Shown here: in pieces, positions 15,407 through 36,275 of the stretch
Layout of the letters: every line of letters starts with the position of its first letter
Position numbering within the stretch: position 1 is the first letter of the stretch
Source: Planctomycetota bacterium
GTDB lineage: Bacteria; Planctomycetota; Brocadiia; CAIUPP01
Direction of reading: 5' to 3'
NCBI GenBank assembly: GCA_022705425.1
Contig: JAKJEM010000001.1
Span: 260,515 to 324,514 of the forward strand
Length of the DNA stretch: 64,000 nucleotides
The notes under the pieces: model-generated
What the model was told of the DNA's origin: nothing
The model's database searches: none
What the model saw: only the letters and a program-made list of their open reading frames with translations
Made by a program: the position numbers and the translations under genes

Positions 15407-16339
15407 CTACCCCTTCCGGGCGCTGCGCAGGAAGGCCTTCGTCTCCGGCAGGCTGGGAATGCCTGCCCGTCCGCCGAGCTTCCGGCACTTCAGCGCCGCC
15501 ACCGCCGCCGCCAGTTCCGCCGCCTTCTTCAACTCCATCTCCTGCGACAGCGCGTAGGCGAAGGCGCCGTGGAAGACGTCGCCGCAGCCGGTGGTGTCCA
15601 CGATCTTCGGCGGCTTGAAGGCGGGCTGGTGGAACTCGCCGCCGCGCCACACGAAATAGCTGCCCTTCGCTCCGGACGTCACGGCCACGACCTTGTCGGG
15701 GTCGGCGGCGCTCAGCTTGCGGAAGTACTTGCGCGCGGCGGTCTGGAAATCGCACTTGCCCACCCGGCTCTGCGCGAAACGCAGGCTGGCCACGACGTGG
15801 GTTGAAAGGGCCGCCAGCCGGTCGTTCTCCGGCGGCGTCAGCTCCGCGTCCATGAGGATCGCCATTCCCTCCTTGCGCGCGTACTCCGCCGCGCGGATCG
15901 CGGCGGCCACCTGGAACCCGTCCACGAACAGGACCTTGCCCGCGATCACATCCGCCCGGCGGACTTCGCCGGGGTTCACCACCGGGGCGTCGTCGAGGCA
16001 GTAGTAGAGGGTGCGGAAGCCCTTGGAGGGGTTGATGACGCCGATGGTTCGGATGGCCGACATGCCGGGGGCGGTGCGGATGCACGAGGTATCCACACCC
16101 TCGCTCCTGAACTCGTTCACGATAAAGCGGGCGTGGTCGTCGTCGCCGAGCTTGCCGATGAAACGAGCCCTGCCGCCCAGGCGCGCCACGGCCACGAGCC
16201 CCGTCGCCACCAGTCCGCCGCCCTGGCGCGTGGTCCCGTAGACCTGCATCTTCTGGTCTTCCTCGATGGGACCTTCATAGATGCCGAGCGTGTCCACGGC
16301 GCAGCAGCCCACGCCGACGACGTCAAAGGTCTCTTGCAT
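15407..16339 (-). CDS. PfkB family carbohydrate kinase
   Basis: GGGLVATGLVAVARLGG, VDTTGCGDVFHGAF; SD GAGGGA before ATG 16339 (alternative leaderless start at 16381). Confidence 0.9.
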   Translation of the reverse strand: MQETFDVVGVGCCAVDTLGIYEGPIEEDQKMQVYGTTRQGGGLVATGLVAVARLGGRARFIGKLGDDDHARFIVNEFRSEGVDTSCIRTAPGMSAIRTIGVINPSKGFRTLYYCLDDAPVVNPGEVRRADVIAGKVLFVDGFQVAAAIRAAEYARKEGMAILMDAELTPPENDRLAALSTHVVASLRFAQSRVGKCDFQTAARKYFRKLSAADPDKVVAVTSGAKGSYFVWRGGEFHQPAFKPPKIVDTTGCGDVFHGAFAYALSQEMELKKAAELAAAVAALKCRKLGGRAGIPSLPETKAFLRSARKG

Positions 16340-16387
16340 GGGGGATTCCCTCGTTCTTGCGATGGTCTCCGAGAGCGGCATGCCCGG

Positions 16388-16417
16388 AGTATAGGCCGCA
16401 CGCGCCCCCTCCGTCAA
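16388..16417 (-). promoter_or_regulatory. sigma70-like promoter for pfkB-type kinase
   Basis: TTGACG-18-TATACT on the minus strand, 6 nt upstream of ATG 16381. Confidence 0.65.
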
Positions 16418-16501
16418 GCGCGGCCGCGCCGCCGCGCTGTGCCACATTGCCCTCGCAACTGACCGGTTACGCGCGCCCCGTTTCGTCGCCCCGCGTCCGA
16501 C

Positions 16502-17674
16502 CTACGGGGTGTCTATCCCCGCCTGCGTGTCGAAATCGTGCCAGACGATGTTGTTGTTGGTGTCGTTATCGCGCCCCGTCGGCCAGTTGTCGTTCAGGGC
16601 GTTGTCGTGAATCCAGGAGGTGTAAAAGTGGTCGTAATAGTCGCCGTCTCCCACCCACCAGATGAAGCGCTGCTGCTGATCGGAGGCCCAGGCCACGTGG
16701 CCGTCGCCGTAGAGGACGTTGTAGCCCTCGCGGTGAGCGTAGTAGCCGCAGCCGGGCACTTCGCTGCCCTTCCACAACGGCGCGCCAGCAGGGATGTTGA
16801 CGTCCGGGCCGCCCTTCGAGAAGGAGTCCGAAAAGACCGAGCGACCGCCGAGTAGTTTGCTGGTCTTGAAGGGCGGGCAGCCGGGGATCGCGTAAACGAA
16901 CGGCTTCGTCCAGATGATCCGGTTGCGCGTCTTCGTCCAGGTTGTTCTGCCCGGATAGTTGGCCGCCGTGATGCCGGGATTGTCGCCCACGGCGTAGCGA
17001 TTGCCCATGAACGTCCCGCGGTAGTTGTAGGCGCATTGCACGGCCAGGCCGGTCGTGCCCTCCACCTTGCCCGCCCAGCCCCAGTCGCCGTAGCTCAGCG
17101 TCCGTCCGTCAAAGCCCCCCGCCCGCTTCCAGTGCCCCAGGCTGAAGAGGGTCATTCGCGTGTTCGGATTGTCCGGGCCCATCCCTTCCGACGAGGGGCA
17201 GTAGAAGACCCGCGCATCATTCAGGTAACCGGTGGTCAGAAGGTACCCCAGACCCTGTGGGGCGATGTTGAGTTGTCCGGCGGCAACCGGCATGTAGTCC
17301 AGCGTGCCGGTGGCGGGGTTGTAGCTTCGCCCGTATCCCAGGTTGCGCAGCAGCGGGCTGCCGTTCCAGATGATCTGCGCCGAGCCCTTGACGATCTTTC
17401 CGGTGTGGGGGTCGGCGTAGAGCCCGAAGCCGTAGTCGTAGGGGTCGTAGGAGTATCCCCAGCCGCCCCAGGAGGGGAAGTACTCGTCGTAGTCGGCCAG
17501 GTAGTTCATCAGGGCCTTGTTGACCTGGTCCATCTGTCCCATGCACGCCGAGCGGCGGGCCTTTTCCCGCGCGCTCGCCAGGGCGGGCAGGAGCATGGCG
17601 GCGAGAATGGCGATGATGGCGATAACGACCAGCAACTCGATCAGCGTGAATGCGCTCCATCGAATCCGCAACAT
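16502..17674 (-). CDS. Prepilin-type N-terminal cleavage/methylation protein with H-X9-DG motif (DUF1559-like), copy 1
   Basis: [35 protein letters not shown]; CPSS; GCPPFKTSK; [12 protein letters not shown]. Confidence 0.9.
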
Positions 17675-17736
17675 GGCGCCCTCCGCAGAAGAAGACGGCA
17701 GCGGCCCTTTCTGCTCCGCGTCGTGAGTTCAAGATA

Positions 17737-17829: not shown

Positions 17830-18624
17830 TCACTTGCGCGCAGGCAGGGTCGAGCTGCGGACCGAGCCGATGGTGAAGCCTCCGTCCACCAGGAAGAGTT
17901 CGCCGTTGACGTAGCCGGAGCACTCCGAGGCCAGGAAGACGGCGGCCGCCCCCATCTCCTCCGGCTCCGCGATCCGCCCCACGGGGATGCGCGTTGCGAT
18001 CGTCTTCACCCATTCCGGGTCCTCCCAGAGCACGCGCGTCTGCTCGGTGCGGCACCAGCCGGGGGCCAGGACGTTGCAGGTGATCCCCTGCGGCCCCCAC
18101 TCCGCCGCCAGGCTCTTGGTCATCTGCAGGATTCCGCCGCGGCTGGCGCAGTAGGCGGTGATATGCGGGTAAGCGTTCACGCAGGTGGCCGAGCCGATGT
18201 TGATGATCCGGCCCCATCCGCGCGCCAGCATCTGCGGCGCCAGCGCCTGGCTGCAGAAGAAGACGCCCTTCAAGTTCGTATCGAGGACGCGGTCCCACTG
18301 CTCCCAGGTCAGTTCCGTCGCCGGGGTGCGGATATTCATCCCGGCGTTGTTGACCAGGATGTCCACCCGCCCGTAGCGCTCGATCGCCCGCGCGGTCAGC
18401 GCGCGGATGTCGGCCTCGATCGTCACGTCGAGCTTCACCGCCAGCGCCTGGCGTCCCAGCGCTGCAATCTCCGCCGCCACCGGGGTCAGCACGGCGGGGT
18501 CGCGGCTGGTGATGACGACATCCGCCCCCGCGCCGGCCAGCGCCAGCGCGATGGCCTTGCCCAGCCCGCGACTGGACCCGGTGACAACGGCAACCTTGCC
18601 GGCAAGGTCTATGGTCATGGGCAT
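17830..18624 (-). CDS. Short-chain dehydrogenase/reductase (gluconate 5-dehydrogenase/KduD-like)
   Basis: VTGSSRGLG, NNAG, YCASR, NVLAPG, VDGG; SD AGGAG. Confidence 0.9.
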   Translation of the reverse strand: MPMTIDLAGKVAVVTGSSRGLGKAIALALAGAGADVVITSRDPAVLTPVAAEIAALGRQALAVKLDVTIEADIRALTARAIERYGRVDILVNNAGMNIRTPATELTWEQWDRVLDTNLKGVFFCSQALAPQMLARGWGRIINIGSATCVNAYPHITAYCASRGGILQMTKSLAAEWGPQGITCNVLAPGWCRTEQTRVLWEDPEWVKTIATRIPVGRIAEPEEMGAAAVFLASECSGYVNGELFLVDGGFTIGSVRSSTLPARK

Positions 18625-18641: not shown

Positions 18642-19658
18642 TCAGGGGATGACGACGGCCTTCAGGTCCGCGCCCTGGGGGCGGGCCAGGCGGTGGAAGG
18701 CCGCGACGGCTTCGGCCAGCGGGAAGCGCCTCACCCCCGCGCCGGGCCTCATCCGGCCTTCGGCCAGCAGTTGCGCCGCCAGCAGGAACTCCTCTTCCGT
18801 TGCGGCATACGAGCCGATAACGGTCTTCTGCGGCAGGGTGATGCCGTAGGTCGCCAGCGTCATGGCGTCCTCGTGCAGGCCGATCCAGCAGGCGCCGCCG
18901 CCGGGGCGGAGCATCGCCAGCGCCTGCGCCTTGGTGGCGGCGCTGCCCACGGCGTCTATGACGTAATCCACGCCGTCCTCGCCGGCGAAGTCCAGCCCGG
19001 CCTTCGCGGCATCCTCCTGCCGCGCGTTCACGGTGCGCTCCGCGCCCAGCTCGCGGGCGATGGCCAGGCGTTCGGCGCTGACGTCGGCCACGGCCACGCG
19101 CGCGCCGCACAACGCCCGCGCCGCCTGCGCGCACATCAGCCCGATCACCCCTGCGCCGAAGACGAAGACGCTGCGCTTCTCCAGGTGCGGCAGCAGCCGG
19201 GCGGCATGGACGCCGTTGGCCGCCGGCTCGACCAGCGCGCCCAGGACCGGGTCCATTCCCTTGGGCCGTTGATAGAGCACGGACGCCGGGGCCGCGACGT
19301 ACTCGGCGCACGCCCCCGGACGGTGCATGCCGAACAGGCGGCGCTCGGGGCACAGGTTCGTATCCCCGCGCCGGCAGGCAGGGCACGCGCGGCAGGGGAC
19401 GACGGAGTTGGCGATGACGGCATCGCCGGGGCGCAGCGTCGTGACGCCGGCCCCCACGCGCTCGACGCGCCCGCAGAACTCATGCCCCAGCACCAGCGGC
19501 GGCCGGCGTCGCGGAAGACGCTTCAGAAAGCACTCGATCTCGGACCCGCAGATCCCGCACGCCTCGACGCGGATGAGCGCCTCGCCCGCCTGGGGTTCGG
19601 GACAGGGGAGGTCTGCCAGCTCGAGAAGTTCCCAGTCCTTGTACAGAAGCGCCTTCAT
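18642..19658 (-). CDS. Zinc-dependent alcohol/sugar-alcohol dehydrogenase (MDR)
   Basis: CGICGSE, GHEF, CRACPAC...C structural Zn, GAGVIG. Confidence 0.9.
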   Translation of the reverse strand: MKALLYKDWELLELADLPCPEPQAGEALIRVEACGICGSEIECFLKRLPRRRPPLVLGHEFCGRVERVGAGVTTLRPGDAVIANSVVPCRACPACRRGDTNLCPERRLFGMHRPGACAEYVAAPASVLYQRPKGMDPVLGALVEPAANGVHAARLLPHLEKRSVFVFGAGVIGLMCAQAARALCGARVAVADVSAERLAIARELGAERTVNARQEDAAKAGLDFAGEDGVDYVIDAVGSAATKAQALAMLRPGGGACWIGLHEDAMTLATYGITLPQKTVIGSYAATEEEFLLAAQLLAEGRMRPGAGVRRFPLAEAVAAFHRLARPQGADLKAVVIP

Positions 19659-19718: not shown

Positions 19719-21488
19719 TCAGCGGCAGGCGGCCTTGAAGTTGCCGACGGCCTCGGAGGTCCGCAGGGCGCGACCATACAGCCTAAGCAGAAGCAGGCGT
19801 CCCTGCAAGCCTGTCGCCAGCCGCGCCTGGGGCGAGCCGTTGGCCGAGACGAACCAGGGGCTGAAGCGCCCCCAGCCGAAGGCGCGTTCCGCCCCGCCAT
19901 CGCCCAGCCGCCCGTCCACGACCAGGGTGATCACACGCGGCCCGCCATCCACCGTCACGACGACATGGCGCCGCCGTCCGGCCTCAAGAACCCCGACGTC
20001 ACTCGTCCAGCGGGCCTCGGTCTGGCCGTCGTTCAAGAGGACCTCGACCCTTCCCTGTTCAGCCGTGCGCACACACAGCCCTTGTCCGCCGGGGAGCCGG
20101 CTGTCCAGGATGCCCTGTCCCGGAGATGCGGCGGCGAAGTCCGCCATGAACTCGATGCTGAATCCGTGCCGCAGCGACAGCGCCCCGAAGTCCGGGCGGC
20201 TGCTGTCCCGCACGCAGAAGGCCGGCAGGGGGGGCATGGGGCGCTCTCCCGTCAGGCCCGCCTCGTCGGCGAAGGACACCAGCTCCTCGCCGGCAACGCG
20301 CCCCGCCGACTCGAACTGCCCCCACAGGCCTTCGACCAACTCGCGGCTGACTTCATGAACGCGCCCGAGATTTTTCTGGGTCTCGGTGATGAAGTAGCGC
20401 CCGCCGTCCTCGATCAGGTCGGGATAGCTGATTCGGACGAAGGGGTCGTCGTCATAGAGGACGATCTCCGGCTGCGACCAGCGGATCACGCGGCCCTCGG
20501 GGCCGTCGGCCTCGACACCGCCGGCGAGCCAGGCCGGATTGCGCCAGTCCCAACTGCGCCCGCCGTTGTGGTGGAACCAGAGCAGGAACTTCCCATTGGC
20601 GCAGCGCCAGGCGAAGCACGCCGCGCGGGGAGTCTTGATGCGGCGGCCATCCGCAAAGGCGGCATAGGCGGGAACGCTCCAGGTGCGACCGCCATCGCGG
20701 CTGTAGGCGCAGGCGGGGTGCCCGTCGCGCGTGCGGTAGATACAGTGAAAGGAGCCGTCGCTCAGGGGCGCAACGCTTTGCTCCTCGGCCACCGTTCCGC
20801 CGCCGGGGGGCGTCCGCAGTCCGACATCTCCCTCCGGCCAGGTATGCCACGCGGCCTTGGCGGGGTCGGACACCGTCAGCAGGTCGGGGCTGTGGAGCAG
20901 CGCGCCCTCGGACTGTCCGAACCCCATGTCGCGGAGTTTGATGAGCGGGCAGTACACCTCGCCCTTGTGGATGAAGGGCCGCCCGACGTTCCAGAAGAAG
21001 CGCACCTCCCCGCCGTAGAGGTTCTGGCGATCGCAGGCGAAATCCCGGACCGGAACGACGTAGCGTTCCCGCGACCAGGTGCGCCCGCCGTCGTCGGTGT
21101 ACCGGAAGACGTAGTCGCCCAGCGTGTCCACTCTGCGGCAAAGGCCGTCCTTGAAGGGCGGATTGCAGGCGCGGACCTCGCGGAGGTTGCGCGCGTTGTA
21201 GTTGTAGAAGCAGTAGATCCGTCCCCCTGGCGTCTTGAGGAGGACGGAGTAGGCCGATTCGGGGCCGTTCGGGCTCTCCAGCGGCACGGGTTCGGACCAG
21301 GTGCGTCCAAGGTCCGTGCTGCGCATCGAACGCACGTGCTGGCCCGGCTCCCCCTCATGGCCGGGGCCCGTCGTCACGGTGCACAGCCATGCGCCGTCCT
21401 CCGTGCGTACGACATAGGGCTGGTCGGCATAGCGAAGCGTCGGGAAGGGGTACCCTTCGACGATCAGGCGCGGGTCGCGCGGCGGCAT
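19719..21488 (-). CDS. BNR/Asp-box sialidase-like protein with C-terminal LamG-like domain
   Basis: Asp boxes STDLGRTW, TDDGGRTW, SRDGGRTW; C-terminal HVVVTVD...LVVDG...LRLYGRAL. Confidence 0.8.
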   Translation of the reverse strand: MPPRDPRLIVEGYPFPTLRYADQPYVVRTEDGAWLCTVTTGPGHEGEPGQHVRSMRSTDLGRTWSEPVPLESPNGPESAYSVLLKTPGGRIYCFYNYNARNLREVRACNPPFKDGLCRRVDTLGDYVFRYTDDGGRTWSRERYVVPVRDFACDRQNLYGGEVRFFWNVGRPFIHKGEVYCPLIKLRDMGFGQSEGALLHSPDLLTVSDPAKAAWHTWPEGDVGLRTPPGGGTVAEEQSVAPLSDGSFHCIYRTRDGHPACAYSRDGGRTWSVPAYAAFADGRRIKTPRAACFAWRCANGKFLLWFHHNGGRSWDWRNPAWLAGGVEADGPEGRVIRWSQPEIVLYDDDPFVRISYPDLIEDGGRYFITETQKNLGRVHEVSRELVEGLWGQFESAGRVAGEELVSFADEAGLTGERPMPPLPAFCVRDSSRPDFGALSLRHGFSIEFMADFAAASPGQGILDSRLPGGQGLCVRTAEQGRVEVLLNDGQTEARWTSDVGVLEAGRRRHVVVTVDGGPRVITLVVDGRLGDGGAERAFGWGRFSPWFVSANGSPQARLATGLQGRLLLLRLYGRALRTSEAVGNFKAACR

Positions 21489-21501: not shown

Positions 21502-24500
21502 TCATTCCAGAACGAGCACTTCGGCCTCTTCGAGGCGGGGCAGGCGAATCACAACGTCGTCGCCGCGACGCTCGAAGGGCATCTGCTCCCCCGACCAGGC
21601 GGAGCGAACGGCCTTGACCGCTCCGGCGTTGCGGATCGTAACCGCCGGCTGCTCAACCAGAGCCAGCAGCGTGCGGGCGCCGGGGAACTCCAGGGGGGAG
21701 TCGGGGCGTCCAGACATCGTGTCGTTCGAGTTGGCCGCCTTGTAGGCCCAGTTCAGGAGCACGACCGCGCGCGCGCCGGACACCGGATGGCGCAGGTAGA
21801 TCACCTCGGAGCAGGGCGCATCCAGGAGAACCGGCGGCTCGACCCCGGCCCGCAGCGCCGGGGCGGCGATGCAGGCGCGCTTGGCCGGACTGAAGTCGCG
21901 CGACATGTCGTAGCCGGGCTTGAGGATATCGGCGCTGTACTCGAGGCCGGGATAGAAGCCGGCCACATAGGCCGCGCCCTTCTGCCAGGGGTGCCGGGTG
22001 AGCGCCGGCTTGCCGTCGGCGAAGCGCGCCAGGACCTGCGCGCCGGGGCCGGGGTCCAGCGGCTCGCGCCCGACGGCCAGCGAAAACTCTCCGGCAAGGT
22101 CCCCTTCGCCGCGCAGGGCGGCCTCCGGCGGAAGGGGCTTGTCCTTCTGAAGCGGGTGGAAACTCGCCAGCGACACCGCACCGTAGCGGGAGACGGAACT
22201 CCACATTTCCAAAGGCGGGCGCGACGCCAGGCCCAGAGCCGGTTGCAGCGCGGCCAGCGGCCGTCCGGCTTCGTCGCGCGAAAGCCCCCCGGCGCTGGTG
22301 TAGAGCACGCCGCCCTGCGCCACCCACGCCGCCAGCTTCTCCGCCGAGGCGCGCCGCAGATGCGTGCCGCTGACGTAGATGACCTTGTAGGCGCCCAGGT
22401 CCTCCGACTCGATCAGGCCTTCATCGAGCGCGTCCACGGGGAGATGGGCGTGCATCAGCGCCGCGTACACCCACTTGCCGTTCTCCCACGAGGCGTTGTT
22501 TTCGAAGTACTCCGATGTCAGGGGCCGGACGACGGCGATGCGGGCCGGCACGGCCGGACGCGCGCCGTAGAGAGCTTCCTCCGCCGCGCCGATGAGCCGC
22601 GCCGCGCGGCTTGTGGCCGCCAGGGCCGTCGGACTGGCGGAGAAGCTGTCGCCCTTGGTCCAGTTGGGGCCGTAGGTGTACCAGAAGATGACCTTGCAGC
22701 CGTGCGCAACGGCCGTCAAGGCGCGCTGAATCGGCGCGCCCCGATGGGGTTTGACGTAGATGCCGAAGCGGGAGTTCAGCCGGCCCTCGATCGTGGCGCC
22801 CACGGCGCAGAGGTAGCTATCCCACTGCCAGACGCGGGCGTCGCGGTTCGAGGTTTCATACATGAACCCGTTGTCCGCCTGGCGGTAGAAATCGAAGAAA
22901 TCGAGACTTGCTCCGCCCATGAGGAAGGTGTTCCCGCGCAGGGAGTACGAGTAAACCCAGGGCTGCCGCGCCTCGGGGGAGTCCGGGCGGCCCTCGGCCA
23001 GGGCCTGCTTCTTGCGAGCGTTCTGCTCCTCAAAGTAGCGGCGCTGAGGGGCGAACATGGAGGCCGAGACGTCGTTATTGAATCGCCGCGTGCAGTAGGT
23101 CAACAGCGCGCGGCCCGATTCGGGCAGAGGGATCGGCGGGGGAGGGGCGACGGAAGTGTTGCGGCGGGCGGTCGAAGCGCGACGCGCCGGGGCCTCGTCG
23201 TCCCCCTGGTCCACCACGTTCGCATCCGGGTCATCGGCCTCGGCGGGGGCGGTTTCGCGCGGCTGGGTCGTTGCCGGAGGCGTTCGCGAGGGGGCGACTT
23301 CGAGCGCTTTGGCCAGTGCCTCGCGCTCCTGCCGGGCGCTTTCCGCTGTCTTGGCGGCGGTCTCGGCGGCCTTCTTCTCGGCGTACGGAATGTCCCAGTA
23401 CCCCCACACGGGGCGCACCGCTTCCCAGTCCGCCGCGCCGAAGTCGGCCAGTCCGTAACCCAGCTTCTGCACGTAGTCGCGGAAAGCCTTCCGGCAGTGC
23501 GGGCAGCAGCCCATGTGGCTCTTTCGCTCCGGCGTGCGGTCGAAGACCGAGCCGATCTCGTCCACGGTGAGGAACCAGTATTCCTCCACGGGCGTCTTGC
23601 GTACCGTTTCATCCATGAGCCTGGCCGCCGCCGCGCGGACGTTCTCGGCCAGGTTCGGGCGGGAAGGATGGAAGGGGCAGCCGGCCGTCGCGTCGGGGGC
23701 GTCGGGGTCGAATCCGGGCACGGGATAGCCGATGCCGTGCGACAGCCGCACGCGCGTGAACTCCGCGCCGATCCCCTCGCGCGCGCGGATCATCTCCGAG
23801 GCGAACCCCGGCGCGCCGCGCAGCCCGTTTACGCCGATCTGCCGTAGCGCGCGGAACTCGTTGAGCAGCGTCTGGCGATTGGTGGTCCGAATCCCGTAGC
23901 CCGCCCCGGCGCCATAGCCGTAACAGTCGGTGACGAAGGCGGTCCGGCGGGGGAGGGGCAGGCTCGCCCAGGGCAGGGCTTCCAGCCAGGCCACGCGCCG
24001 GTCGGCGTAAGCCGCCAGGCCCGTCGTTTCGGCCAGGAAGGCCTGGTCCGGCGTCTCGGCCACGCCCAGGCGATGGAGGGGAAGGTAGATGCCCACCGTC
24101 GGGCCGTCCGGTCCCGCCTCGGTGAAGGTCTTCAGTGTTCGCCCGCCTTGCGCCACCTCGAACTCGACGACGATCTGCTTGAGCGTTCCCCGACTGGCCC
24201 CGCGGCTCTTCATGCCCTCCAGGGTCACCGTCAGGAAGGTCCCCCCGCTGCGGCGGAACTCCGTCATCGGCACCGGCCAGGTCCAGACGCCCGGCTTGAG
24301 CCAGTAGGTGTCGCTCAGCCGCCCCTTCTCGATGAAGTAGTCCTTCTCCTCGCGGATGGGCCCGGCGCGCCCGTCGAGGTCGTCGAACAGCGCCTTGTCG
24401 TCGCTGTCCTTGCGTCCCGTGCCGGCCACGAACTCCTGCGAACTGGGGGCCTGGAGCGTCTTCGGGGAGACGACCGGGAAGATGCCGGAAACGACGTCGC

Positions 24501-24687
24501 CGCCGAGCCCCTCGCCGCCCCAGCGCCAGTGGAATCGCACCGGCTCGCGGGGGGTCATCTCGATGACGCGCAGGCGCAGGGTGACTTGCGGCAGCAGGGC
24601 GGAGGCCCTTCCGCGCGGCGCGGCGGCGGGCGCGCCGCACAGGCACAGGGCGGCTGCGACGGCCAGGCACAGGGCGGCTGCACGCAT
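21502..24687 (-). CDS. Large secreted protein with GH42-like/beta-galactosidase trimerisation-type C-terminus
   Basis: Signal peptide; TVDEIG..CCPHC; ARIAVV..., YKVIYVSG, WVAQGGVL, RHPWQKGAAY; internal low-complexity linker. Confidence 0.6.
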   Translation of the reverse strand: MRAAALCLAVAAALCLCGAPAAAPRGRASALLPQVTLRLRVIEMTPREPVRFHWRWGGEGLGGDVVSGIFPVVSPKTLQAPSSQEFVAGTGRKDSDDKALFDDLDGRAGPIREEKDYFIEKGRLSDTYWLKPGVWTWPVPMTEFRRSGGTFLTVTLEGMKSRGASRGTLKQIVVEFEVAQGGRTLKTFTEAGPDGPTVGIYLPLHRLGVAETPDQAFLAETTGLAAYADRRVAWLEALPWASLPLPRRTAFVTDCYGYGAGAGYGIRTTNRQTLLNEFRALRQIGVNGLRGAPGFASEMIRAREGIGAEFTRVRLSHGIGYPVPGFDPDAPDATAGCPFHPSRPNLAENVRAAAARLMDETVRKTPVEEYWFLTVDEIGSVFDRTPERKSHMGCCPHCRKAFRDYVQKLGYGLADFGAADWEAVRPVWGYWDIPYAEKKAAETAAKTAESARQEREALAKALEVAPSRTPPATTQPRETAPAEADDPDANVVDQGDDEAPARRASTARRNTSVAPPPPIPLPESGRALLTYCTRRFNNDVSASMFAPQRRYFEEQNARKKQALAEGRPDSPEARQPWVYSYSLRGNTFLMGGASLDFFDFYRQADNGFMYETSNRDARVWQWDSYLCAVGATIEGRLNSRFGIYVKPHRGAPIQRALTAVAHGCKVIFWYTYGPNWTKGDSFSASPTALAATSRAARLIGAAEEALYGARPAVPARIAVVRPLTSEYFENNASWENGKWVYAALMHAHLPVDALDEGLIESEDLGAYKVIYVSGTHLRRASAEKLAAWVAQGGVLYTSAGGLSRDEAGRPLAALQPALGLASRPPLEMWSSVSRYGAVSLASFHPLQKDKPLPPEAALRGEGDLAGEFSLAVGREPLDPGPGAQVLARFADGKPALTRHPWQKGAAYVAGFYPGLEYSADILKPGYDMSRDFSPAKRACIAAPALRAGVEPPVLLDAPCSEVIYLRHPVSGARAVVLLNWAYKAANSNDTMSGRPDSPLEFPGARTLLALVEQPAVTIRNAGAVKAVRSAWSGEQMPFERRGDDVVIRLPRLEEAEVLVLE

Positions 24688-24729: not shown

Positions 24730-27051
24730 CTACCGACCTGCCGGCGCTGCGGGGCGGGCCGCCGGCGGGGGCGGGGGCGCGGGGGGCTGGCCGGTGTAGA
24801 TCATCACCGGCTTGATGATGCCGCCCAGCAGCAATTCCGTAATCGAACGGTGGTCAACTTTGACGGCGACGACGTTCTCCTTGCCGGGAATGAGCTTGCC
24901 GGTGATCTCGACTTCGTTGGGCACGCGGCCCCGCGTGAACTCGCCGACCGGCTCGCCGTTGAGGAAGACCTTGGTGGGCCGCCCGTCAATCTCCGCGAAC
25001 CAGAGCGTCACCGGCCCCTGGGGAATCTGCGCCGGAGCGGTGAAGGACGTGCGGTACCACAGGAAAGTCAGCACTTCGGGAATGCCCTGCTGGCTGAGGG
25101 TATTGGAGTACGTCTTCACCTTGCGCCAGCCCTCGGCGGGAAGGTCCGGCTTCTGCCAGCCGGCGGCTTCGCCCTCATCCTTCGTATCGTAGCGGAAGAG
25201 CCACTCGTCGGGAAGCTGAAGGAGCATCTTGCAGTCGCCGGTCGTGCGGGCGAACCCCTGCTCGATCGGCTGAGACAGGAATCGCCGCGTGTAGCCCTGC
25301 TTGTACTCGCCGATGCTGTGGACACGCGCCGTGTAGGCCGCGTCCATGTGGGCCTGCCAGGCCGTCAGAATCTCCTTTGCCTTCACGAAATCGCACCGGT
25401 TCGTGGCCTCGCGCACGGCCAGGAAGCAGCGCGCATTCTCCAGGCCCATGCGGAACATCTCCACCCGCTTCCGAACGAGGTCCGTATCGGCGACGCGCGC
25501 CGCCGCGTCGAGGTCGGCGGTGCACGCCGCCAGCAACTGCGGCGTCCAGAAGACGTGGTTCGAGTAGAAACTTCCGGAGTGCGCCGGGCTCGTGGCTACG
25601 GCCTTGTCAATCCGCTCCCAGTAGGCCTTGACGTGCGGCGCCGCCGGCCCGCAGAAGCGCGTGTAGAAATCATCCATCACCGCGTCCACGTCCAGGTCGG
25701 CCTTCCACATCATGCGCGCGGCCAGGTAGGTGTGCGGCCCGTAGATGTGCCACATCGCCAGGCACTCGATGTTGACGCCCACGCAGCCGCGCTGCTTGAG
25801 GTAGGGGAAGTCGTGCCGCCACACGTTCACCTTGGAGAAGGGCACCGTCAGTTCGGCCACCTGGTAGTTGTACTCGCGCCAGCCGATCTTGGAGACGACG
25901 TTGCTCCAGCCCTCGACGACGCTCTTGCAGCGCTGGCGCGACTCGCACACGGGGCTGCCGAGGGGATGCAGGCGGCAGAAGCGCAGGGGCGCGATCCACG
26001 CGCAGAGGTTGTCCGGCGACTTGACGGGGCGCTTCGGGGGGATCGAGTAGTCGGCATAGGCGTAGAAGTTGAGCACGGCGTTCGGGTTGATCTTGCGCAC
26101 TCCCTCGGCCACGGCGTTGAAGAAGAGGATGTACCGGTCCGACATGGCCACGCGACCGGAGCTCACCTCGATGTTCGTCGGATCGTCGAGGGCCTTGCAG
26201 GTGTCGCATTCGCAATAGGCCGTACCGTCCGGCGGGGAAATGGAGATCGAGGCGAAGCCCTTGTCCTTGACCTGTTCGCCGATGGTCTCGATGAAGATGC
26301 GGATGACGTCGGGGTTGGTGGTGCAGACCCATCCGCCCGGCTTCCGCACGCCGCCGCGGAGGGCGTAGTACTCCGGGTGCTCCGCCGCGTATTTCTGCGG
26401 CGGCACGTTGCCCCAGGCATGCCCGGCGTTGGCCGGCAGGCCGCCCAGGCGGTTGCGGCGTCCCCAGACGGCCGAGCCGCCCCAGTTCGGCCCCCACATG
26501 CGGCGCGCGGCGAAGTCCGGCTTCTCCGCCGCATCCAGCTTGTCGGCCACGATGGTCTTCATCTCCGGGACGACCTCGCCGATCGGGTTGTCGAAGAACC
26601 AGCGGCAACCGAGCGTTTCGAGGAAATGGCTCACGGCGAAGGAGGTCGAATCCGGCGTTTCGCCGGCGAGCATCAGGAGGTTGTCGCGCACGAGGACGCG
26701 GTAACCGTCGCCGCTGATGGTTTCCGGCGGCTTGGGCATTCCCAGATCAAGCGCCAACGCTCCGACGATCACCGCCGGGCGCCCGGCCTCGGGGCGCGCG
26801 CCCTTCTCCACCGCCTTGACCTCCACGGCGGCCCCCGACATCATCTGAAGGTACTTGGCCAGTTCGCGGGCGGCGTCGGCGTCGCTCAGCGGGCGTCGCG
26901 CGGCGGGCCGCGCCGCGGAGGCGTCGGCATAGTGCCAGATGGCCGCCGCCGGCTGGCCGTCGCGGACGATCTCGACGGCCGCAGGGACGGAGGCCGGGGC
27001 CACAAACAAGGAGAGAAGGGCCGCCGCAGTCCACGCGCGCTGTGTCCTCAT
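24730..27051 (-). CDS. DUF4838-domain secreted protein with C-terminal sugar-binding jelly-roll
   Basis: Signal peptide; LETLGCRWF, HPEYYA, CTTNPDV, PPDG..YCECDTC, YL.ARMMW; C-terminal WLFRYD...WYRTSF..; real start is ATG 27051, not 28887. Confidence 0.8.
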   Translation of the reverse strand: MRTQRAWTAAALLSLFVAPASVPAAVEIVRDGQPAAAIWHYADASAARPAARRPLSDADAARELAKYLQMMSGAAVEVKAVEKGARPEAGRPAVIVGALALDLGMPKPPETISGDGYRVLVRDNLLMLAGETPDSTSFAVSHFLETLGCRWFFDNPIGEVVPEMKTIVADKLDAAEKPDFAARRMWGPNWGGSAVWGRRNRLGGLPANAGHAWGNVPPQKYAAEHPEYYALRGGVRKPGGWVCTTNPDVIRIFIETIGEQVKDKGFASISISPPDGTAYCECDTCKALDDPTNIEVSSGRVAMSDRYILFFNAVAEGVRKINPNAVLNFYAYADYSIPPKRPVKSPDNLCAWIAPLRFCRLHPLGSPVCESRQRCKSVVEGWSNVVSKIGWREYNYQVAELTVPFSKVNVWRHDFPYLKQRGCVGVNIECLAMWHIYGPHTYLAARMMWKADLDVDAVMDDFYTRFCGPAAPHVKAYWERIDKAVATSPAHSGSFYSNHVFWTPQLLAACTADLDAAARVADTDLVRKRVEMFRMGLENARCFLAVREATNRCDFVKAKEILTAWQAHMDAAYTARVHSIGEYKQGYTRRFLSQPIEQGFARTTGDCKMLLQLPDEWLFRYDTKDEGEAAGWQKPDLPAEGWRKVKTYSNTLSQQGIPEVLTFLWYRTSFTAPAQIPQGPVTLWFAEIDGRPTKVFLNGEPVGEFTRGRVPNEVEITGKLIPGKENVVAVKVDHRSITELLLGGIIKPVMIYTGQPPAPPPPPAARPAAPAGR

Positions 27052-27144
27052 GGAGTTGCTCCCGCTGCACTGGAAGGGGAAGAGAACAAAATCCATTATA
27101 CCGGAGACGCTCCGTCGTGCGCCACGTTTTGCGTCAGAAGGAAC

Positions 27145-27173
27145 TTGACTTGCTTTCGGGGCGATGCTACCAT
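27145..27173 (+). promoter_or_regulatory. sigma70-like promoter for LacI/DUF1559 operon
   Basis: TTGACT-17-TACCAT with TGn extension; a divergent TATAAT lies on the minus strand at 27095-27100. Confidence 0.7.
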
Positions 27174-27187: not shown

Positions 27188-27199
27188 GCTAACGTTAGC
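27188..27199. promoter_or_regulatory. LacI-type operator palindrome GCTAACGTTAGC
   Basis: Perfect 12-bp palindrome with central CG, 14 nt downstream of the -10 box and 32 nt upstream of the LacI ATG. Confidence 0.7.
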
Positions 27200-27231
27200 A
27201 TAACCGCGCGGCTTATGCAAGGCGCTTGGCG

Positions 27232-28224
27232 ATGCCGACGCTGAAGGACATTGCGGCGCAGACTGGGTACCACGTGACCACCGTGTCGCGGGTTCTCACG
27301 GACAAGGGCGACCGCGTGATCTCTCCCGCGGCGCGGGAACGCATTCTCGCCGTCGCGCAGGACCTTGACTATCAACCCCACTTCCTCGCCCGCAGCCTCC
27401 GGCGGCGTCGGACCTTCCTCATCGGCGTGGCCGGCTCCCTCTTCGGCTCCGAAACGCGCGCCATGCAGATGCGCAGTCTCGTCGGACCCTTCGAGAAACA
27501 CGGATACGGCCTCCTCTTCCAGGACTCCTACAACCTCTTCGCCGCCGAAAAGCGCGCCGTCCGCGAGCTGGTGACGAAGGGGGTCGAGGGCCTTATCCTT
27601 CAGTCCTACGCCGGCGAAGCGGAACTCGCCGAGATGCTGCCCGCGAACATCCCCTGCCTGCTGCTGGTCGAGCGTCCGGTCAAGGCGGCGCCTTGCGTGG
27701 TCATGGACTATGCCGCCGGGGCGGCGCTGGCGGTGCGGCGGCTGGCGGAGATGGGACATCGCCGGATCGCCTGGCTGCGCATCGGGCGCGTGACCGGCGC
27801 GCAGCGCTACGAGGGCTACTGCCGGGCGATGGAGGCGCTGGGCCTGCGCGACGACGCCCTGGCCCCGGAGATGACCGGCGAGCGCGGCTTCGTCCGGCAA
27901 TACGTCATCGAGCGCGCCGACTTCTTCCGCTCCGTCACCGCCATCCTGGCGCCCGGCGACCGCTGGGCGGGCGAGGCCGTCGGCGGCCTGCGCTGCATCG
28001 GGCTTCGCGTGCCCGAGGACGTCTCCGTCGTGGGCTATGACGATTCCGAGTTTGCCTTCGCCGCCGATCCGCCGCTGGCCTCGATCCGCCACCCGCATGA
28101 GGAGGTCGGCCAGACGGCAACGGCGATGATGCTGGCGCTGATCGAAGGGCGTCGTCCGGGACACGCCGTGCTGGCGCCGCAGTTTGTCGAGCGGGCCTCC
28201 GCAGGCCCGTGTCGTCGCGCGTGA
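27232..28224 (+). CDS. LacI family transcriptional regulator
   Basis: TLKDIAAQTGYHVTTVSRVL HTH; LDYQPHFLARSL; VPEDVSVVGYDD; LASIRHP. Confidence 0.95.
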   Translation: MPTLKDIAAQTGYHVTTVSRVLTDKGDRVISPAARERILAVAQDLDYQPHFLARSLRRRRTFLIGVAGSLFGSETRAMQMRSLVGPFEKHGYGLLFQDSYNLFAAEKRAVRELVTKGVEGLILQSYAGEAELAEMLPANIPCLLLVERPVKAAPCVVMDYAAGAALAVRRLAEMGHRRIAWLRIGRVTGAQRYEGYCRAMEALGLRDDALAPEMTGERGFVRQYVIERADFFRSVTAILAPGDRWAGEAVGGLRCIGLRVPEDVSVVGYDDSEFAFAADPPLASIRHPHEEVGQTATAMMLALIEGRRPGHAVLAPQFVERASAGPCRRA

Positions 28225-28266: not shown

Positions 28267-29407
28267 ATGGGCCGCACCCGAAGGTTCTTCGCCGCCTTTA
28301 CGTTGATTGAGCTGCTGGTTGTCATCGCCATCATCGCCATTCTCGCCGCGATGCTCCTGCCTGCCCTGGCGAGCGCGCGGGAGAAGGCCCGGCGAAGCAG
28401 TTGCACGAACAATCTGAAGCAGATCGGCCTCGCGCTCGAGGTTTACACCTCCGATTACGGGCAGTACTTCCCCGGTCTGCTGGCCTGGGGCGCCGACGCC
28501 GCGCGCCGCATGGTTTACACCGACGCCCAGGGGGGCACGGTGGCCTTCTGGGGGCCGGGGAGCTGGGCGGCCTGCTATGACGAGCGCATCTTCACCTGGC
28601 AATATCAGCACCTCCTCGGCATGGGCTTCTTCCATAACGATTCCAGTGCGGCAGACTACTTCCCCGCGCCTGCGCAGGGGACGAACGCCCTTCGCGTTGC
28701 TCCGGTGGGGCTGGGGTTGTTGACACTGACCTCCGGACTCGATGACGAGAAGAGTCTGCACTGTCCCAGCATGGGCCGGCAGTGGAACTGGCTGCGCTGG
28801 AAGATCGGCGCGCACGGCGGGCAGACCGGCGGAAACGAACTGGTGTGGAACGGCGGGGCGGAGGAATGGAAGCGCGCCGCCGGGCACGACGCTCCTCTAC
28901 GGCAACTGGGGACGCGGCCTCGGCTCCTACGACGGCGCCTGCCGCGTCGGCGGCGGGTCGGGCAACCTCTATCGCAACTGGTACATCCTGGGCGACTACA
29001 CCTACCTCAACTACCCCATCGGCGGCAGCACCGGCAACACGCCGCTGCCCTTCCGCCCGAACAACAACGTCCTCGACATCCCCTGGACGAAGCCCGTCGT
29101 CAAGAGCGACCACGGCTGCCCGCCCTTCAAGACGACCAAGCTGCTGGCCGGCCGCGCCCTCGTCTCCGACGGCATCATGCACTCCGAAAGCACCCCCACC
29201 GCCCCCGGCGTCGGCGTCTTTGCGCACGGCGAAGGTTACAACGTCCTCTACGGCGACGGCGGTTGCGCCTGGTACGGCGATTCCACCGAGCGCATCGCCT
29301 GGTGGGGGGACGAGATCAACAACACCCGGCACTACTCGCTGGCAGGAAACATGAACATGCCGCTCGTGCACAATCTGTTCAATCAGCTTCGTGACATTGA
29401 CCGGTAG
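28267..29407 (+). pseudogene. Prepilin-type H-X9-DG (DUF1559-like) protein, copy 2, frameshifted near 28885
   Basis: Frame 1 matches paralogs up to WKRAAG; homology (TTLLYGNW...GCPPFKTTK...[12 protein letters not shown]) continues in the +1 frame to stop 29407. Confidence 0.85.
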
Positions 29408-29458
29408 GGCCGCGCCGCCTCGGCGAGGCGGGCTCTTCTTGTCGAGGGAGGAAGACAC

Positions 29459-30646
29459 ATGCAACGGCTCCGGACGCGCCTGAAGAGGGCTTTCACGCTC
29501 ATCGAACTGCTGGTGGTGATCGCCATCATTGCTATTCTGGCCGCCATGCTCCTGCCCGCCCTGGCGAGCGCGCGGGAAAAGGCGCGGCGCGCCACGTGCA
29601 TGAACAACCTCAACCAGTTCGGCAAGAGCTTTGCGATCTACCTCTCCGAGTATGGCGAATACTACCCCGGCAACCTGGCTTGGGGAGAGGACGCCGCCGG
29701 GACGGCGCAGATGGTTTACACCGACCGCTTCGGCGCCACGGTCAACTACACCTCCTCCCGCCACTCCGTGGGCTACAAGGGGACGCAGCACTGCATCGGG
29801 GCGTCGTGCTTCTACGATGCCGGCGAGAACTTCTCCTGGATTACGGCGAACATGCTCAAGGTGGCGCCCACGGGTGTCGGCATGTTCCTCGAGATGGGGA
29901 TGCTCTCCGACGAGAAGAGCTACCTCTGCCCCTCGCTGATGACGGAGTGGCGCGACCTGCGGCTGTTGCTGGGCGACACGCAGCCGGCGAACGAGATCGG
30001 CTGGAACGGCGGAGCGGCCTGTTGGCGCAAGGCCGCCGCCGGCGCCAAGACGGGCGACTCCCGCAGTACCTTTCTCTACGGCAAATGGCCCGAGCGGACG
30101 CGCAACGGCGGGAGCTGGCGCGACTACATCCTCTTCATCTTCAACGACTACGCCTACCTGAACCATCCCGTTGCCGGCAGCTCCTGGTCGGTCAACGCCA
30201 ACTCCTTCGGCATCGGATGGACGCGCCCGACCGTGATGACCCGCTGGGGATGCCCGCCCTTCAAGACCAGCAAGAACCTCGGGGGCCGCGCCGTCATGTC
30301 CGACGGCTTCTTCCATCTCAACAACTCGAGCGCCGGTCTGGGAATCTACCACCATCGCGACGGCTACAACGTGCTCTACGGCGACGGTTCCTCCGCGTGG
30401 TACGGCGACTCGACACAGCAGATCGCCTGGTTTCCCGGCGGCGAGGACCCCGTCGTCAAATGGGCTGTCGGCAAAGGCTTGGGCTACACCTCCCACTATG
30501 CCAACAACACCAACGGTACCTTCCCGTGCAACGCCACCTCCGGGTCGTCATCCACCAACTGCGACGACGGGGCCTATAACACCCCGCGCATTCACAATCT
30601 ATTCAATACCGCTCAAGGCATAGACGTCACCGCGCAACCGTTCTGA
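29459..30646 (+). CDS. Prepilin-type H-X9-DG (DUF1559-like) protein, copy 3
   Basis: [15 protein letters not shown]..., [25 protein letters not shown]; SD GGAGG. Confidence 0.9.
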
Positions 30647-34503: not shown

Positions 34504-34546
34504 CCGGACCCGCCCGCGACGCGCTTCTCGAATGGAGGATCGGTCT

Positions 34547-35848
34547 GTGAGCGTAGATGTCGCCCTTCAAGTGACGCGGCGTTCCGTGGCGCTGACCCTT
34601 CCCCCCGATGGCGGCGAGGGTCCGCCCCTGCGCTATGGACTATGTCTTCCCTTTCAGCTCGCTCCGCGCAAGGCGGCCCTGTTGTGCAACGTCCGCCGCC
34701 TCGGCGTCACCAGTATTGATTTCGAGTCCGGGGCGGACGTCATCCCCTTCGACTGCCTGGACGATATCTCCCCCGCCCGGGCGACGACGATCGGACGCAA
34801 CACGCGCGAGTGCCACCCGGCCGGCGGGCAGCCGCTCCTCATGGCGCGCCACCTCTGCTCGGGCGGCTTCGTTCCCCTCGGCGCGCGGTTGAAGGACGGC
34901 CGGCCCCATCCCCACGCCGGCACGGGCTTCATCGTGGGGACGACGGTCGCCTTTGCCGCCGACTTCTCGACGCGCCTTCACCGGGACCTGCCCGGCCCCT
35001 TCAGCCGGATGGAACTGCACCAGACGCTCTGGGACGGGGGGGCTTTCCACGTGACGCGCTCCGATTACTTCATCGGCGAGAGGATCCTGCCCGGGTGGAA
35101 CGTCGTCGGGCGCGGTCTGGGCGGCGCGATTCCCGACGGAGAAGACCTGTTGCACGGTCTGACCGTCCGCGAGGGGAACGGGTCCACTCAGTCCGGTCTG
35201 GCGCGCTGGCGGCGCGGCCCCGAAGGCTGGCGTCCCGTGTCCTTCACGCCGGTGACGCCGTCCGAGGGCTTCGGAGAGCCCTCGGTTCAGCGCGACGTGG
35301 ACGGCCGCCTGCTGTTCGCCGCGCGCGGGGCGCTGCATGTTTCCACCGACGGCGAGAGCTACGGGATCGCGATCTGGCGCTCCGGCGATGGCGGTGTTTC
35401 CTGGGAAGCGGTCGTCAGCGCCCCCGGCACGCGCGGCAACACCCCTACCATTCTGAACCAGGCGGCCGACGGAACGCCGTACGTCGCGGGCAACCCGTAC
35501 ACCCCCGGCGCGTGCGACGGCACGGGCCGCCGCATCAGCATCTGGTCGCACCGGCAGAAGGTGGCGCTCTGGCCCCTGCGCGCCGACCGCCGCGCGCTGC
35601 TGCCGCCCGTCCTCGCCCGCGACACTGCCGACTTCGGCCCGCCGCCGGAGGGGCGCGTCTGGTACGCCGATCATCCCCTGGGCGCCACCGTTCAACTGGC
35701 CGACGGGCGTTGGCGGCATCTCCTGGCCTGGCGCGTCCGCGAGAGCCAGCCCGCGCGCGATTCCTGCGAGCGCCCCACGCCCTTCACCGGGACCTTCATC
35801 GAGGAGGTTTCGACCCCCGGCGCGGGGCGTCCGCCGTGGGGGCTCTGA
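34547..35848 (+). CDS. Hypothetical Asp-box/beta-propeller (sialidase-like) protein
   Basis: WRSGDGGVSW Asp box, FGEPSVQRD.DG.LLF; SD GGAGG before GTG 34547. Confidence 0.6.
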   Translation: MSVDVALQVTRRSVALTLPPDGGEGPPLRYGLCLPFQLAPRKAALLCNVRRLGVTSIDFESGADVIPFDCLDDISPARATTIGRNTRECHPAGGQPLLMARHLCSGGFVPLGARLKDGRPHPHAGTGFIVGTTVAFAADFSTRLHRDLPGPFSRMELHQTLWDGGAFHVTRSDYFIGERILPGWNVVGRGLGGAIPDGEDLLHGLTVREGNGSTQSGLARWRRGPEGWRPVSFTPVTPSEGFGEPSVQRDVDGRLLFAARGALHVSTDGESYGIAIWRSGDGGVSWEAVVSAPGTRGNTPTILNQAADGTPYVAGNPYTPGACDGTGRRISIWSHRQKVALWPLRADRRALLPPVLARDTADFGPPPEGRVWYADHPLGATVQLADGRWRHLLAWRVRESQPARDSCERPTPFTGTFIEEVSTPGAGRPPWGL

Positions 35849-36275
35849 CACGGTCCGGCGGCGTGCTCGCCCGCGCCCGGAGCGGCTGCCGGAGCGTCTT
35901 CAGCAACCCCTCCAGCGCCCTGCGGTTCGCAAAGGCGTTGACGTAGATGTACTCGATGCGCTCCCCGTGTTTCAGATGCACGCCGTGGACGGTCTTCTGC
36001 GGGATTCGCACCACCATCCCGGCCCGCACGGAAATTCGACGGCGCCCCAGGAGGATTGTGCCCGCGCCCTTGAGAATCAGGTAGATCTGGTCCCATCCGT
36101 CGTGGCAGTCCAGGGCCTTTGTGGTCGGCCCTTTCGCGCGGACGCGCCCGGCGCTCATCAACCCCAGCGTACCGGGCGTTACGACGAACTGGTAGGCGAT
36201 GTTCGCGCCGCTGTCCTGTTCGTAGCGGGGGAGTTCCTCGAAACGCTCAACCGGCTTGCAGCGGGGACGGCCCAT
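35796..36275 (-). CDS. Cupin domain protein
   Basis: DCHDGWDQIYLILKGAG...VVRIPQKTVHGV. Confidence 0.8.
   Translation of the reverse strand: MGRPRCKPVERFEELPRYEQDSGANIAYQFVVTPGTLGLMSAGRVRAKGPTTKALDCHDGWDQIYLILKGAGTILLGRRRISVRAGMVVRIPQKTVHGVHLKHGERIEYIYVNAFANRRALEGLLKTLRQPLRARASTPPDRVRAPTADAPRRGSKPPR

Follow-up and report, generated by a model that had tools for sequence, protein, structure and literature searches.

The locus described here raises the question of why genes for pilin-like proteins should lie between a sugar-type regulator and the enzymes of a presumed glycan utilisation locus. It occupies positions 15,407 to 36,275 of a 64,000-nucleotide stretch of a Planctomycetota genome (assembly GCA_022705425.1, contig JAKJEM010000001.1, positions 260,515 to 324,514), hereafter called the window. 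A LacI-family regulator, exported DUF4838 proteins and three H-X9-DG proteins with the N-terminus of a type IV pilin are encoded in this region. An earlier note on the same DNA, made from the sequence alone, had read the region as resembling a polysaccharide utilisation locus (PUL), in which interchangeable pilin-tethered heads would bind glycans for uptake or sensing. Comparison with related loci gives strong support to a more general description: the locus is one copy of a stereotyped cassette composed of (i) a sugar-responsive regulator; (ii) one to three pilin-like genes; (iii) co-directional genes for mostly exported enzymes; and (iv) no transporter.

The G+C content of the window is about 69%, and genes were therefore called from codon-position statistics together with a codon log-odds model, and annotated with Pfam and NCBIfam. 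Related loci were fetched by the motifs of the pilin-like head alone (GYNVLYGD and a second block), thereby avoiding a bias towards particular neighbouring genes. This main sample comprises 79 loci of about 1.1 Mb in sum, mostly from two Planctomycetota metagenome-assembled genomes (MAGs), with a few from a ‘Brocadiia’ relative and from Hydrogenedentota. Among its 868 genes there are 107 with the head domain, arranged in 90 unique arrays (one gene in 79, two in 8 and three in 3), with at least 41–44 paralogues per MAG.

The gene directly upstream of an array (position −1) encodes a regulator of the LacI or periplasmic-binding-protein (PBP) type in 37 of 74 arrays, 29 of them co-directional and 8 divergent, and at no other position does the share of such regulators exceed 7%. 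Elsewhere in the sample they account for 10 of 681 genes (odds ratio 67, p=6e-33), and both main MAGs display the pattern (21/40 and 13/25). The 35 other −1 genes include eight of the GntR family (four fused to SBP_bac_1 or SBP_bac_8 domains, three with an FCD domain), one ROK and one AraC gene, which brings the transcription factors at −1, all of small-molecule-responsive types, to 47 of 74 arrays (64%). Since several unrelated regulator families occupy the −1 slot, the repeated copying of a single ancestral pair does not explain the arrangement. Where the regulator and the pilin-like gene share a strand, the median gap between them is about 50 nt, and in four cases the two genes overlap by 4 nt. 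The earlier expectation that H-X9-DG genes are linked to LacI genes and carbohydrate-active enzymes (CAZymes) rather than to transporters is thus borne out for this head subfamily, across about 90 arrays in several genomes. The fusion of a GntR helix-turn-helix (HTH) domain to SBP_bac_1 or SBP_bac_8, seen at positions 807-2279 of locus L165 and in three other −1 genes, is an unusual sensor for a cytoplasmic regulator.

On the other side of the arrays, the first downstream gene (+1) is co-directional in 70 of 82 cases and encodes at least 600 amino acids in 40 of 82. The 167 unique operon partners include 36 proteins in one DUF4838 cluster, to which the large DUF4838 protein of the present locus belongs. 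DUF4838 is the catalytic domain of the CAZy glycoside hydrolase (GH) families GH163 and GH185, distant relatives of GH20 acting on N-acetylglucosamine linkages (PMC10570127). The other partners include PcRGLX, beta-helix, GH42-like, GH123, GH78, GH38, GH4, CBM9 and CBM4_9 proteins (the last two named after carbohydrate-binding modules, CBMs), GDSL esterases and many proteins without an assigned family. By a crude heuristic, signal-peptide-like N-termini are present in 29 of 56 +1 genes (52%), in 59% of the large ones, and in 2 of 40 regulators (5%). The closest homologous contigs carry a regulator with a GntR HTH and a Peripla_BP domain, three tandem pilin-like genes, a PcRGLX-like gene, a gene for a 904-aa protein and a BNR gene, with a DUF4838 gene divergent upstream. 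The same order was obtained for L081, L083, L246 and L247 from database gene calls and Pfam, separately from our own gene caller; by the same means, L249 showed enzyme-only contexts.

Genes for ATP-binding cassette (ABC) or major facilitator superfamily (MFS) transporters, TonB-dependent receptors or SusD were found neither in the region nor in the rest of the 64 kb, among the proteins scanned with Pfam and NCBIfam. To this extent the claim that the ~21 kb contain no transporter stands. The sole multi-pass permease gene found in the window, of the AEC family, begins 86 bp past the end of the region, and the absence therefore depends in part on where the boundary is drawn. In the main sample, 35 proteins with multiple transmembrane (TM) segments occur in about 1.1 Mb, at about 3% of every position and with no enrichment near the arrays; the sugar-type transporters amount to 3 MFS proteins and 2 ABC permeases (BPD_transp_1). 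Transporters beside orthologous loci, named in the earlier note as evidence that would speak against its idea, are lacking in L081, L082, L083, L246 and L247, none of which has an adjacent sugar transporter. The pilin-like genes occupy the slot that usually holds uptake genes in LacI-type sugar operons, a placement in favour of a role in capture.

The explanation preferred here, tentatively, is that the pilin-like proteins are locus-specific subunits of a shared type-IV-filament machine, whose heads would capture the cognate glycan and whose retraction would help to deliver it to the exported enzymes. In the proposed order of events, the short basic leader would be removed between Ala and Phe by a prepilin peptidase, and the nearly identical N-terminal helix would admit each paralogue to a common machine, resembling a type II secretion system (T2SS) or a type IV pilus and encoded elsewhere. 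The divergent, aromatic-rich head would then adapt the specificity of the fibre to the locus, binding the cognate glycan at the cell surface. Retraction of the fibre would bring the glycan up to the outer membrane or across it, where the co-encoded exported enzymes would degrade it. Co-transcription of the regulator and the pilin gene nearest to it would mean that some of this pilin, a basal ‘sentinel’ amount, is present before induction. Processing by the peptidase, filament assembly, glycan binding and import are all inferred here from the genes.

Paralogues 1–3 share a short basic leader, the residues Ala-Phe-Thr-Leu-Ile-Glu, of which Ala would be the last of the leader, and a long hydrophobic helix; their matches to Pfam N_methyl and TIGR02532 exceed the cut-offs, and the sequence features of the type IV pilin class are present. 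In the paralogue alignment, the residue at −1 of the cleavage site is Ala in 74 of 82 and Gly in 7 of 82 sequences, the leaders are short and basic, Pro22 is found in 82/82, and Glu5 is effectively invariant. A sequence profile search of the PDB matched the N-terminal 60–100 residues to solved type IV pilins and GspG; as a route to the identity of the head it was dropped, for the helix alone had matched. The description of three paralogous prepilin-type H-X9-DG proteins holds for the helix, the shared blocks and the Pfam matches, with the reservation that paralogue 2 is broken in the window, where a deletion of 26 bp following position 28882 shifts the reading frame. Two other assemblies of the same organism, L244 and L245 (JGI 3300010344 and GCA_029549465.1), carry this locus with 99.7% identity over 15 kb and have an uninterrupted ORF of 388 aa for paralogue 2; the deletion reflects either variation between strains or a mistake in assembly.

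Mature residues 1–33 are 90% identical across 80 paralogues, against 30% for the heads. At identical residues the codon identity is 0.45, with 0.42 expected, so that the synonymous sites are randomised and the conservation of the helix reflects purifying selection and not recent gene conversion. The constraint appears far stronger than a membrane anchor would need, and would fit a single filament core with a common peptidase and platform; indirectly, it suggests one assembly machine for all paralogues. The same type of helix is carried by a fourth prepilin-type protein of the window, fused to a FecR domain in place of an H-X9-DG head, and therefore more than one kind of head is mounted on the pilin helix in this organism. 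The gene of this fusion adjoins a GDSL esterase gene (60886-61890), and the pair is also found on the Logan contig L243.

The heads of paralogues 1–3 are 34–46% identical to one another and have the blocks CPS, GCPPFKT.K and H-X9-DG in common. The His-X9-Asp-Gly motif is located near the C-terminus, with His299 invariant and Asp309 almost so in 80 sequences; the corresponding model, TIGR04294, was not among the NCBIfam matches at E<=0.01, and its inclusion in that release is uncertain. Pfam DUF1559 (PF07596) is matched with 35.8 and 28.5 bits (cut-off 23.3), over profile positions 2-45 and 2-37 of 268. The richness in W, Y, G and N pointed out earlier was confirmed as a twofold excess of W+Y, which make up 9.8% of the heads and 4.8% of the remaining proteins encoded in these loci, a point in favour of glycan capture. 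A profile of the head alone, run against 1.84 billion representatives, retrieved 2,214 proteins, of which 1,014 had E<=1e-30, with matches starting near residue 45–50 in almost all hits listed. We read the heads as a distinct, compact subfamily of about 400 aa inside the far larger DUF1559 family, whose canonical heads were not searched directly. Paralogue 3 was modelled with AlphaFold (pLDDT 86), and the check for a lectin-like pocket proposed in the earlier note came out negative: a Foldseek comparison with the PDB gave no lectin, SusD or solute-binding match.

These data bear on a second explanation, in which the proteins would be tethered to the inner membrane in the periplasm and never enter a fibre, with the helix serving for export and anchorage and the head acting as an oligosaccharide binder, an enzyme chaperone or scaffold, or a sensor. 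In its classical form FecR is a sensor domain in the periplasm, anchored by a single membrane pass, and its fusion to the same helix agrees with this possibility, as does the large head, which is awkward for packing in a filament. The Pfam name of DUF1559, ‘SBP_bac_10’, points the same way, and DUF1559 has been called a solute-binding protein (SBP) family (PMC2754498). However, a simple anchor has no need of 90% identity over 33 residues with saturated synonymous sites, the fold is unlike that of solute-binding proteins, and no cognate ABC or other transporter is encoded near the arrays to receive a substrate. We consider tethering distinctly unlikely.

A third explanation is that of cargo-specific T2SS pseudopilins. 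GspG (TIGR01710) is the best N-terminal match in NCBIfam (E=1.6e-10 to 3e-8, residues ~8-68), below the cut-off: the proteins reach 33.8–41.2 bits against the 88.85 of the GspG equivalog, with no full-length match. The periplasmic targets recognised by the heads would in this case be the folded enzymes encoded in the same cassette, which a shared T2SS would then export through its secretin. Signal-peptide-like N-termini in about half of the adjacent genes, and in 59% of the large ones, are what secretion would require, and co-transcription with enzymes and a conserved assembly helix suit secretion as well as uptake. Nevertheless, many cassette genes encode cytoplasmic proteins (the dehydrogenases, the kinase and the BNR protein without a signal peptide), and one-to-one pairing with cargo is at odds both with the position of the pilin gene, which sits with the regulator and not with a particular enzyme, and with its weak co-divergence with DUF4838. 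To our knowledge, cargo-specific pseudopilins of the major type have not been found in any T2SS. We regard this explanation as unlikely, all the more as reports on planctomycetes have the polymer entering an enlarged periplasm (PMC5394234).

Several observations weigh against glycan capture by filament subunits itself. A head of about 350 aa is very large for such a subunit, and the residue at −1 is Ala where the canonical one is Gly. Neither pilB, pilC or pilD nor a secretin gene was found in the window, and of the machinery a single gene was seen near the arrays, for a T2SSE ATPase in L234, at a distance of six genes. The AlphaFold head resembled no lectin, CBM, SusD or solute-binding protein, nor any solved structure, in the Foldseek search of the PDB, and no lectin or CBM family match was obtained; glycan binding and uptake are therefore a matter of inference. 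The variable columns of the alignment show no concentration of aromatic residues. The cytoplasmic enzymes of the locus still require an inner-membrane transporter, and the AEC permease gene lies beside the locus. Between a third and a half of the arrays have no regulator next to them, the divergence of heads does not follow that of regulators (Mantel r=−0.13, not significant), and it follows that of DUF4838 weakly (r=0.14, p=0.02). At about 30% identity co-divergence is uninformative, and it was dropped as a test of pairing.

The last points leave room for a fourth explanation: general adhesins or structural pilins without glycan specificity, placed in these loci by the co-regulation of attachment and feeding or by cassette duplication. 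Type IV pili often mediate attachment to polymers, heads and regulators do not co-diverge, and 27 of 74 arrays have no adjoining regulator. What such adhesins explain poorly is that a single genome should have over 40 divergent paralogues, every one of them within a separate enzyme cassette, and that at least five regulator families should share the −1 position; the saturated synonymous sites indicate, moreover, that the arrangement is old and maintained. We judge this explanation very unlikely. Sequence alone does not separate glycan capture by a shared filament machine from these rivals.

The extent of the cassette was assessed in a second sample of 80 loci with 109 pilin-like ORFs, fetched by the pilin helix alone across the superphylum of Planctomycetes, Verrucomicrobia and Chlamydiae (PVC). 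A LacI-type gene stands directly 5' of 9 of the 109 ORFs; where the taxon is named it is always Lentisphaerota, in most cases Victivallales, and none was found among the loci of Verrucomicrobiota, Pirellulales and Planctomycetaceae. With so few LacI links, the cassette is not general to DUF1559 proteins, and the idea that DUF1559 or pilin-like genes as a whole share the linkage was rejected. The cassette does recur, in two PVC lineages at least, and the pilin-like subfamily differs between them. In Lentisphaerota the pilin-like gene is shorter (~230–290 aa) and is followed by genes for sulfatases and for DUF4838, GH78, GH123_N and LamG proteins, an arrangement that resembles a parallel version of the cassette in a different PVC phylum. 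In the Lentisphaerota loci L088, L109, L111, L118, L119, L132, L133, L139 and L146 the LacI-type 5' gene is co-directional with the pilin-like gene.

The layout of the locus itself is that of two divergent, LacI-controlled operons about a control region of 129 bp (Table 1). The earlier statement that a LacI gene with a perfect operator lies between divergent genes of exported DUF4838 proteins agrees with the Pfam matches and with the palindrome GCTAACGTTAGC, which is CG-centred, has a shape typical of LacI-family operators, and is located 3' of a promoter-like site. A search of the window returned this single copy, and the definition of a regulon through GCTAACGTTAGC was dropped. The plus-strand operon runs in the order LacI, paralogue 2, paralogue 3, large DUF4838 protein and 433-aa protein; paralogue 2 starts 42 nt 3' of lacI, and on account of the hairpin between paralogues 2 and 3, lacI and paralogue 2 are possibly on a short transcript of their own. 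The minus-strand operon encodes successively the DUF4838 protein with a GH2_N-like domain, the 1061-aa protein, the BNR_2-LamG protein, the Zn-dependent dehydrogenase, the short-chain dehydrogenase, paralogue 1 and, as its last gene, the PfkB kinase, with gaps of 13–60 nt and one exception of 155 nt.

Table 1. Positions of the features discussed, counted from the first letter of the window; the slash in the leader marks the predicted cleavage site
Feature	Position	Strand	Basis
PfkB-family sugar kinase	15407-16447	-	Pfam PfkB E=2e-40
H-X9-DG pilin-like protein 1, 390 aa, leader MLRIRWSA/FTLIELL	16502-17674	-	Pfam, NCBIfam, alignment
Promoter-like site in the 155-nt gap 5' of paralogue 1	17766-17737	-	Consensus match only
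Short-chain dehydrogenase (SDR)	17830-18624	-	Pfam adh_short_C2 E=6e-67
Zn-dependent alcohol/polyol dehydrogenase	18642-19658	-	Pfam ADH_N, ADH_zinc_N
BNR_2 (sialidase-fold) propeller with C-terminal LamG	19719-21488	-	BNR_2 E=1e-12, Laminin_G_3 E=4.5e-7
1061-aa protein with signal peptide, no family assigned	21502-24687	-	Pfam/NCBIfam
Exported DUF4838 (GH163/GH185-type) protein with GH2_N-like sugar-binding domain	24730-27096	-	Pfam DUF4838 E=7e-49; signal-peptide-like N-terminus
Promoter-like site for the lacI operon, TTGACT-17-TACCAT with TG	27145-27173	+	Consensus match only
Perfect 12-bp palindrome GCTAACGTTAGC, putative LacI operator	27188-27199	.	Divergent 129-bp intergenic region
LacI-family regulator	27226-28224	+	Pfam LacI, Peripla_BP_1, Peripla_BP_3
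H-X9-DG pilin-like protein 2, disrupted	28267-29407	+	Assembly alignment
Terminator-like GC hairpin between paralogues 2 and 3	29415-29431	+	Consensus match only
H-X9-DG pilin-like protein 3, 395 aa, the one modelled	29459-30646	+	Pfam, NCBIfam, AlphaFold
Large exported DUF4838 protein, about 1251-1269 aa	30694-34503	+	Pfam; signal-peptide-like N-terminus
433-aa protein, no family assigned	34547-35848	+	Pfam, NCBIfam, PDB
Cupin_2 / AraC_binding-type small protein	35796-36275	-	Pfam
AEC-family (Mem_trans) permease, 5' of the cupin gene, same strand	36361-37302	-	Pfam Mem_trans E=1e-25
Fourth prepilin-type protein, pilin helix with FecR domain	59418-60623	-	Pfam FecR, SBP_bac_10, N_methyl

The enzyme genes bear out the earlier reading in part. 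The dehydrogenases, the kinase and the cupin are supported by Pfam matches. The 1061-aa protein stands as an ORF with a signal peptide and is homologous (E=1e-80) to the 904-aa protein of related cassettes; its label ‘GH42-like’ is not supported, the sole match, to GH42M, being sub-threshold (E=2e-4, 21.4 bits, cut-off 25.8). Of two supposed sialidase-like propellers one remains, the BNR_2-LamG protein, with weak sialidase matches in the PDB and no signal peptide by the heuristic; the other, the 433-aa protein, has no match in Pfam, NCBIfam or the PDB and is dissimilar to the BNR_2 propeller. The start codon of the minus-strand DUF4838 gene is probably the methionine of MRTQRAW near position 27051. 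The LacI gene, the two DUF4838 genes and the BNR_2 gene constitute a CAZyme gene cluster, defined as a CAZyme with a regulator or more CAZymes within two genes (after PMC11131199). The substrate of the locus is probably a complex glycan containing N-acetylhexosamine. By its HisD protein, the closest named genome is the ‘Candidatus Brocadiia’ Planctomycetota MAG SPRUCE 14, with 66% identity.

Further CAZyme-type genes lie beyond the region, at 9033-11552 (-), 1347-3083 (+), 4349-5701 (-) and 50306-52906 (-); their families are PcRGLX-like lyase/hydrolase, GH2, GH4, oligogalacturonate-lyase-like and GH1, and in the related cassettes L081 and L082 a PcRGLX gene likewise lies 3' of the pilin array. 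Three paralogues of the uroporphyrinogen decarboxylase (URO-D) family are placed amid sugar-metabolism genes (39451-40659, 48466-49653 and 58197-59309), and URO-D matches recur among the genes 3' of pilin arrays in related genomes. An acetyl-CoA-synthetase-type AMP-binding enzyme with an N-terminal STAS domain is encoded at 62298-64000 (+), and at 354-1337 (+) a multi-TM protein that weakly matches pentameric ligand-gated ion channels in their transmembrane region.

Although DUF1559/H-X9-DG proteins are among the largest paralogue families of PVC genomes, full-text searches of the literature found no function assigned to DUF1559 and no description of pilin-like genes in planctomycetal CAZyme clusters. 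According to a 2024 survey these clusters are functionally uncharacterised, and a 2025 review states that the players in planctomycete polysaccharide uptake are still unknown (PMC12673574). What is new here is the occurrence of putative type-IV-filament subunits as cassette-specific parts of glycan utilisation loci, a strongly supported genomic pattern with a proposed mechanism. The cassette offers a concrete candidate gene set, in which the regulators and enzymes hint at each substrate, and the same arrangement in Victivallales, an order with cultured members, makes it testable in the laboratory. Should the heads bind glycans, they would represent a new family of carbohydrate-binding modules and would mark CAZyme clusters overlooked by transporter-based PUL finders.

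Among known systems, the DUF1559/SBP_bac_10 family (PF07596) is the nearest. It shares with the proteins described here the prepilin N-terminus, an above-threshold Pfam match, the H-X9-DG motif and a heavy expansion of paralogues. In contrast to the family at large, the Pfam match is here confined to the N-terminal part of the profile, and is followed by a head with CPS and GCPPFKT.K that we read as marking a distinct subfamily of about 400 aa; the cassette was not seen around the other pilin-like genes of Planctomycetota and Verrucomicrobiota in the broad sample. GspG and the type IV pilins have in common with them the class III signal peptide, Glu5, Pro22, the long N-terminal helix and matches in helix sequence. 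The differences relate to the head, which is about 350 aa here and about 100 there, with no structural match, and to the gene organization, as the present genes are apart from the machinery and form dozens of paralogues inside catabolic operons.

The bindosome of Sulfolobus solfataricus consists of sugar-binding proteins with class III signal peptides and the type-IV-pilus-like assembly Bas (PMC3047682). The likeness would lie in a pilin-type signal on proteins for sugar acquisition and in a shared pilus-like assembly, both of these roles being proposed in our case. That system is archaeal and relies on ABC-type solute-binding heads and ABC transporters, whereas neither is encountered here: no SBP match was obtained with Foldseek or the PDB profile, and hardly any ABC sugar permeases are encoded near the arrays. 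With the PULs of Bacteroidota the locus shares a modular cassette, repeated many times within each genome, in which a regulator goes together with exported CAZymes and with a surface component that is not catalytic. As the scanned window proteins yielded no TonB_dep_Rec or SusD match, the SusC/SusD pair is absent, and the locus is therefore PUL-like in its logic only.

Closer in phylogeny are the crateriform structures of planctomycetes, whose 12-nm pili-like fibres, of unidentified proteins, bind gold-labelled dextran (Boedeker et al. 2017, PMC5394234). The transfer of dextran into the planctomycete periplasm depends on energy and has no assigned transporter (PMC5394234). How whole polysaccharides are taken up in planctomycetes without SusC/SusD has been open since this report of fibre-associated uptake. 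The fibres occur in the same phylum, and the pilin-like genes are candidates for these sugar-binding fibres. A bolder proposal, possible but doubtful, is that the pilins co-assemble by means of their common helix into the thick crateriform polysaccharide-binding fibres, each regulator being paired with a substrate-specific pilin and whole polymers being reeled into the periplasm; the cassette would then be a PVC-specific functional counterpart of SusC/SusD that uses type-IV-filament machinery, shared by Lentisphaerota (Victivallales) and one or more clades of Planctomycetota.

Pilins that bind macromolecules, as proposed here for the pilin-like heads, have precedents. The minor pilin ComP of Neisseria is a DNA receptor, and pilus retraction imports the bound polymer through the secretin. 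The pilin CbPilA of Caldicellulosiruptor is induced by xylan and binds xylan and cellulose (10.1101/614800). Both are single pilins encoded with or near pilus genes; in contrast, the cassettes described here place dozens of locus-specific paralogues behind sugar regulators.

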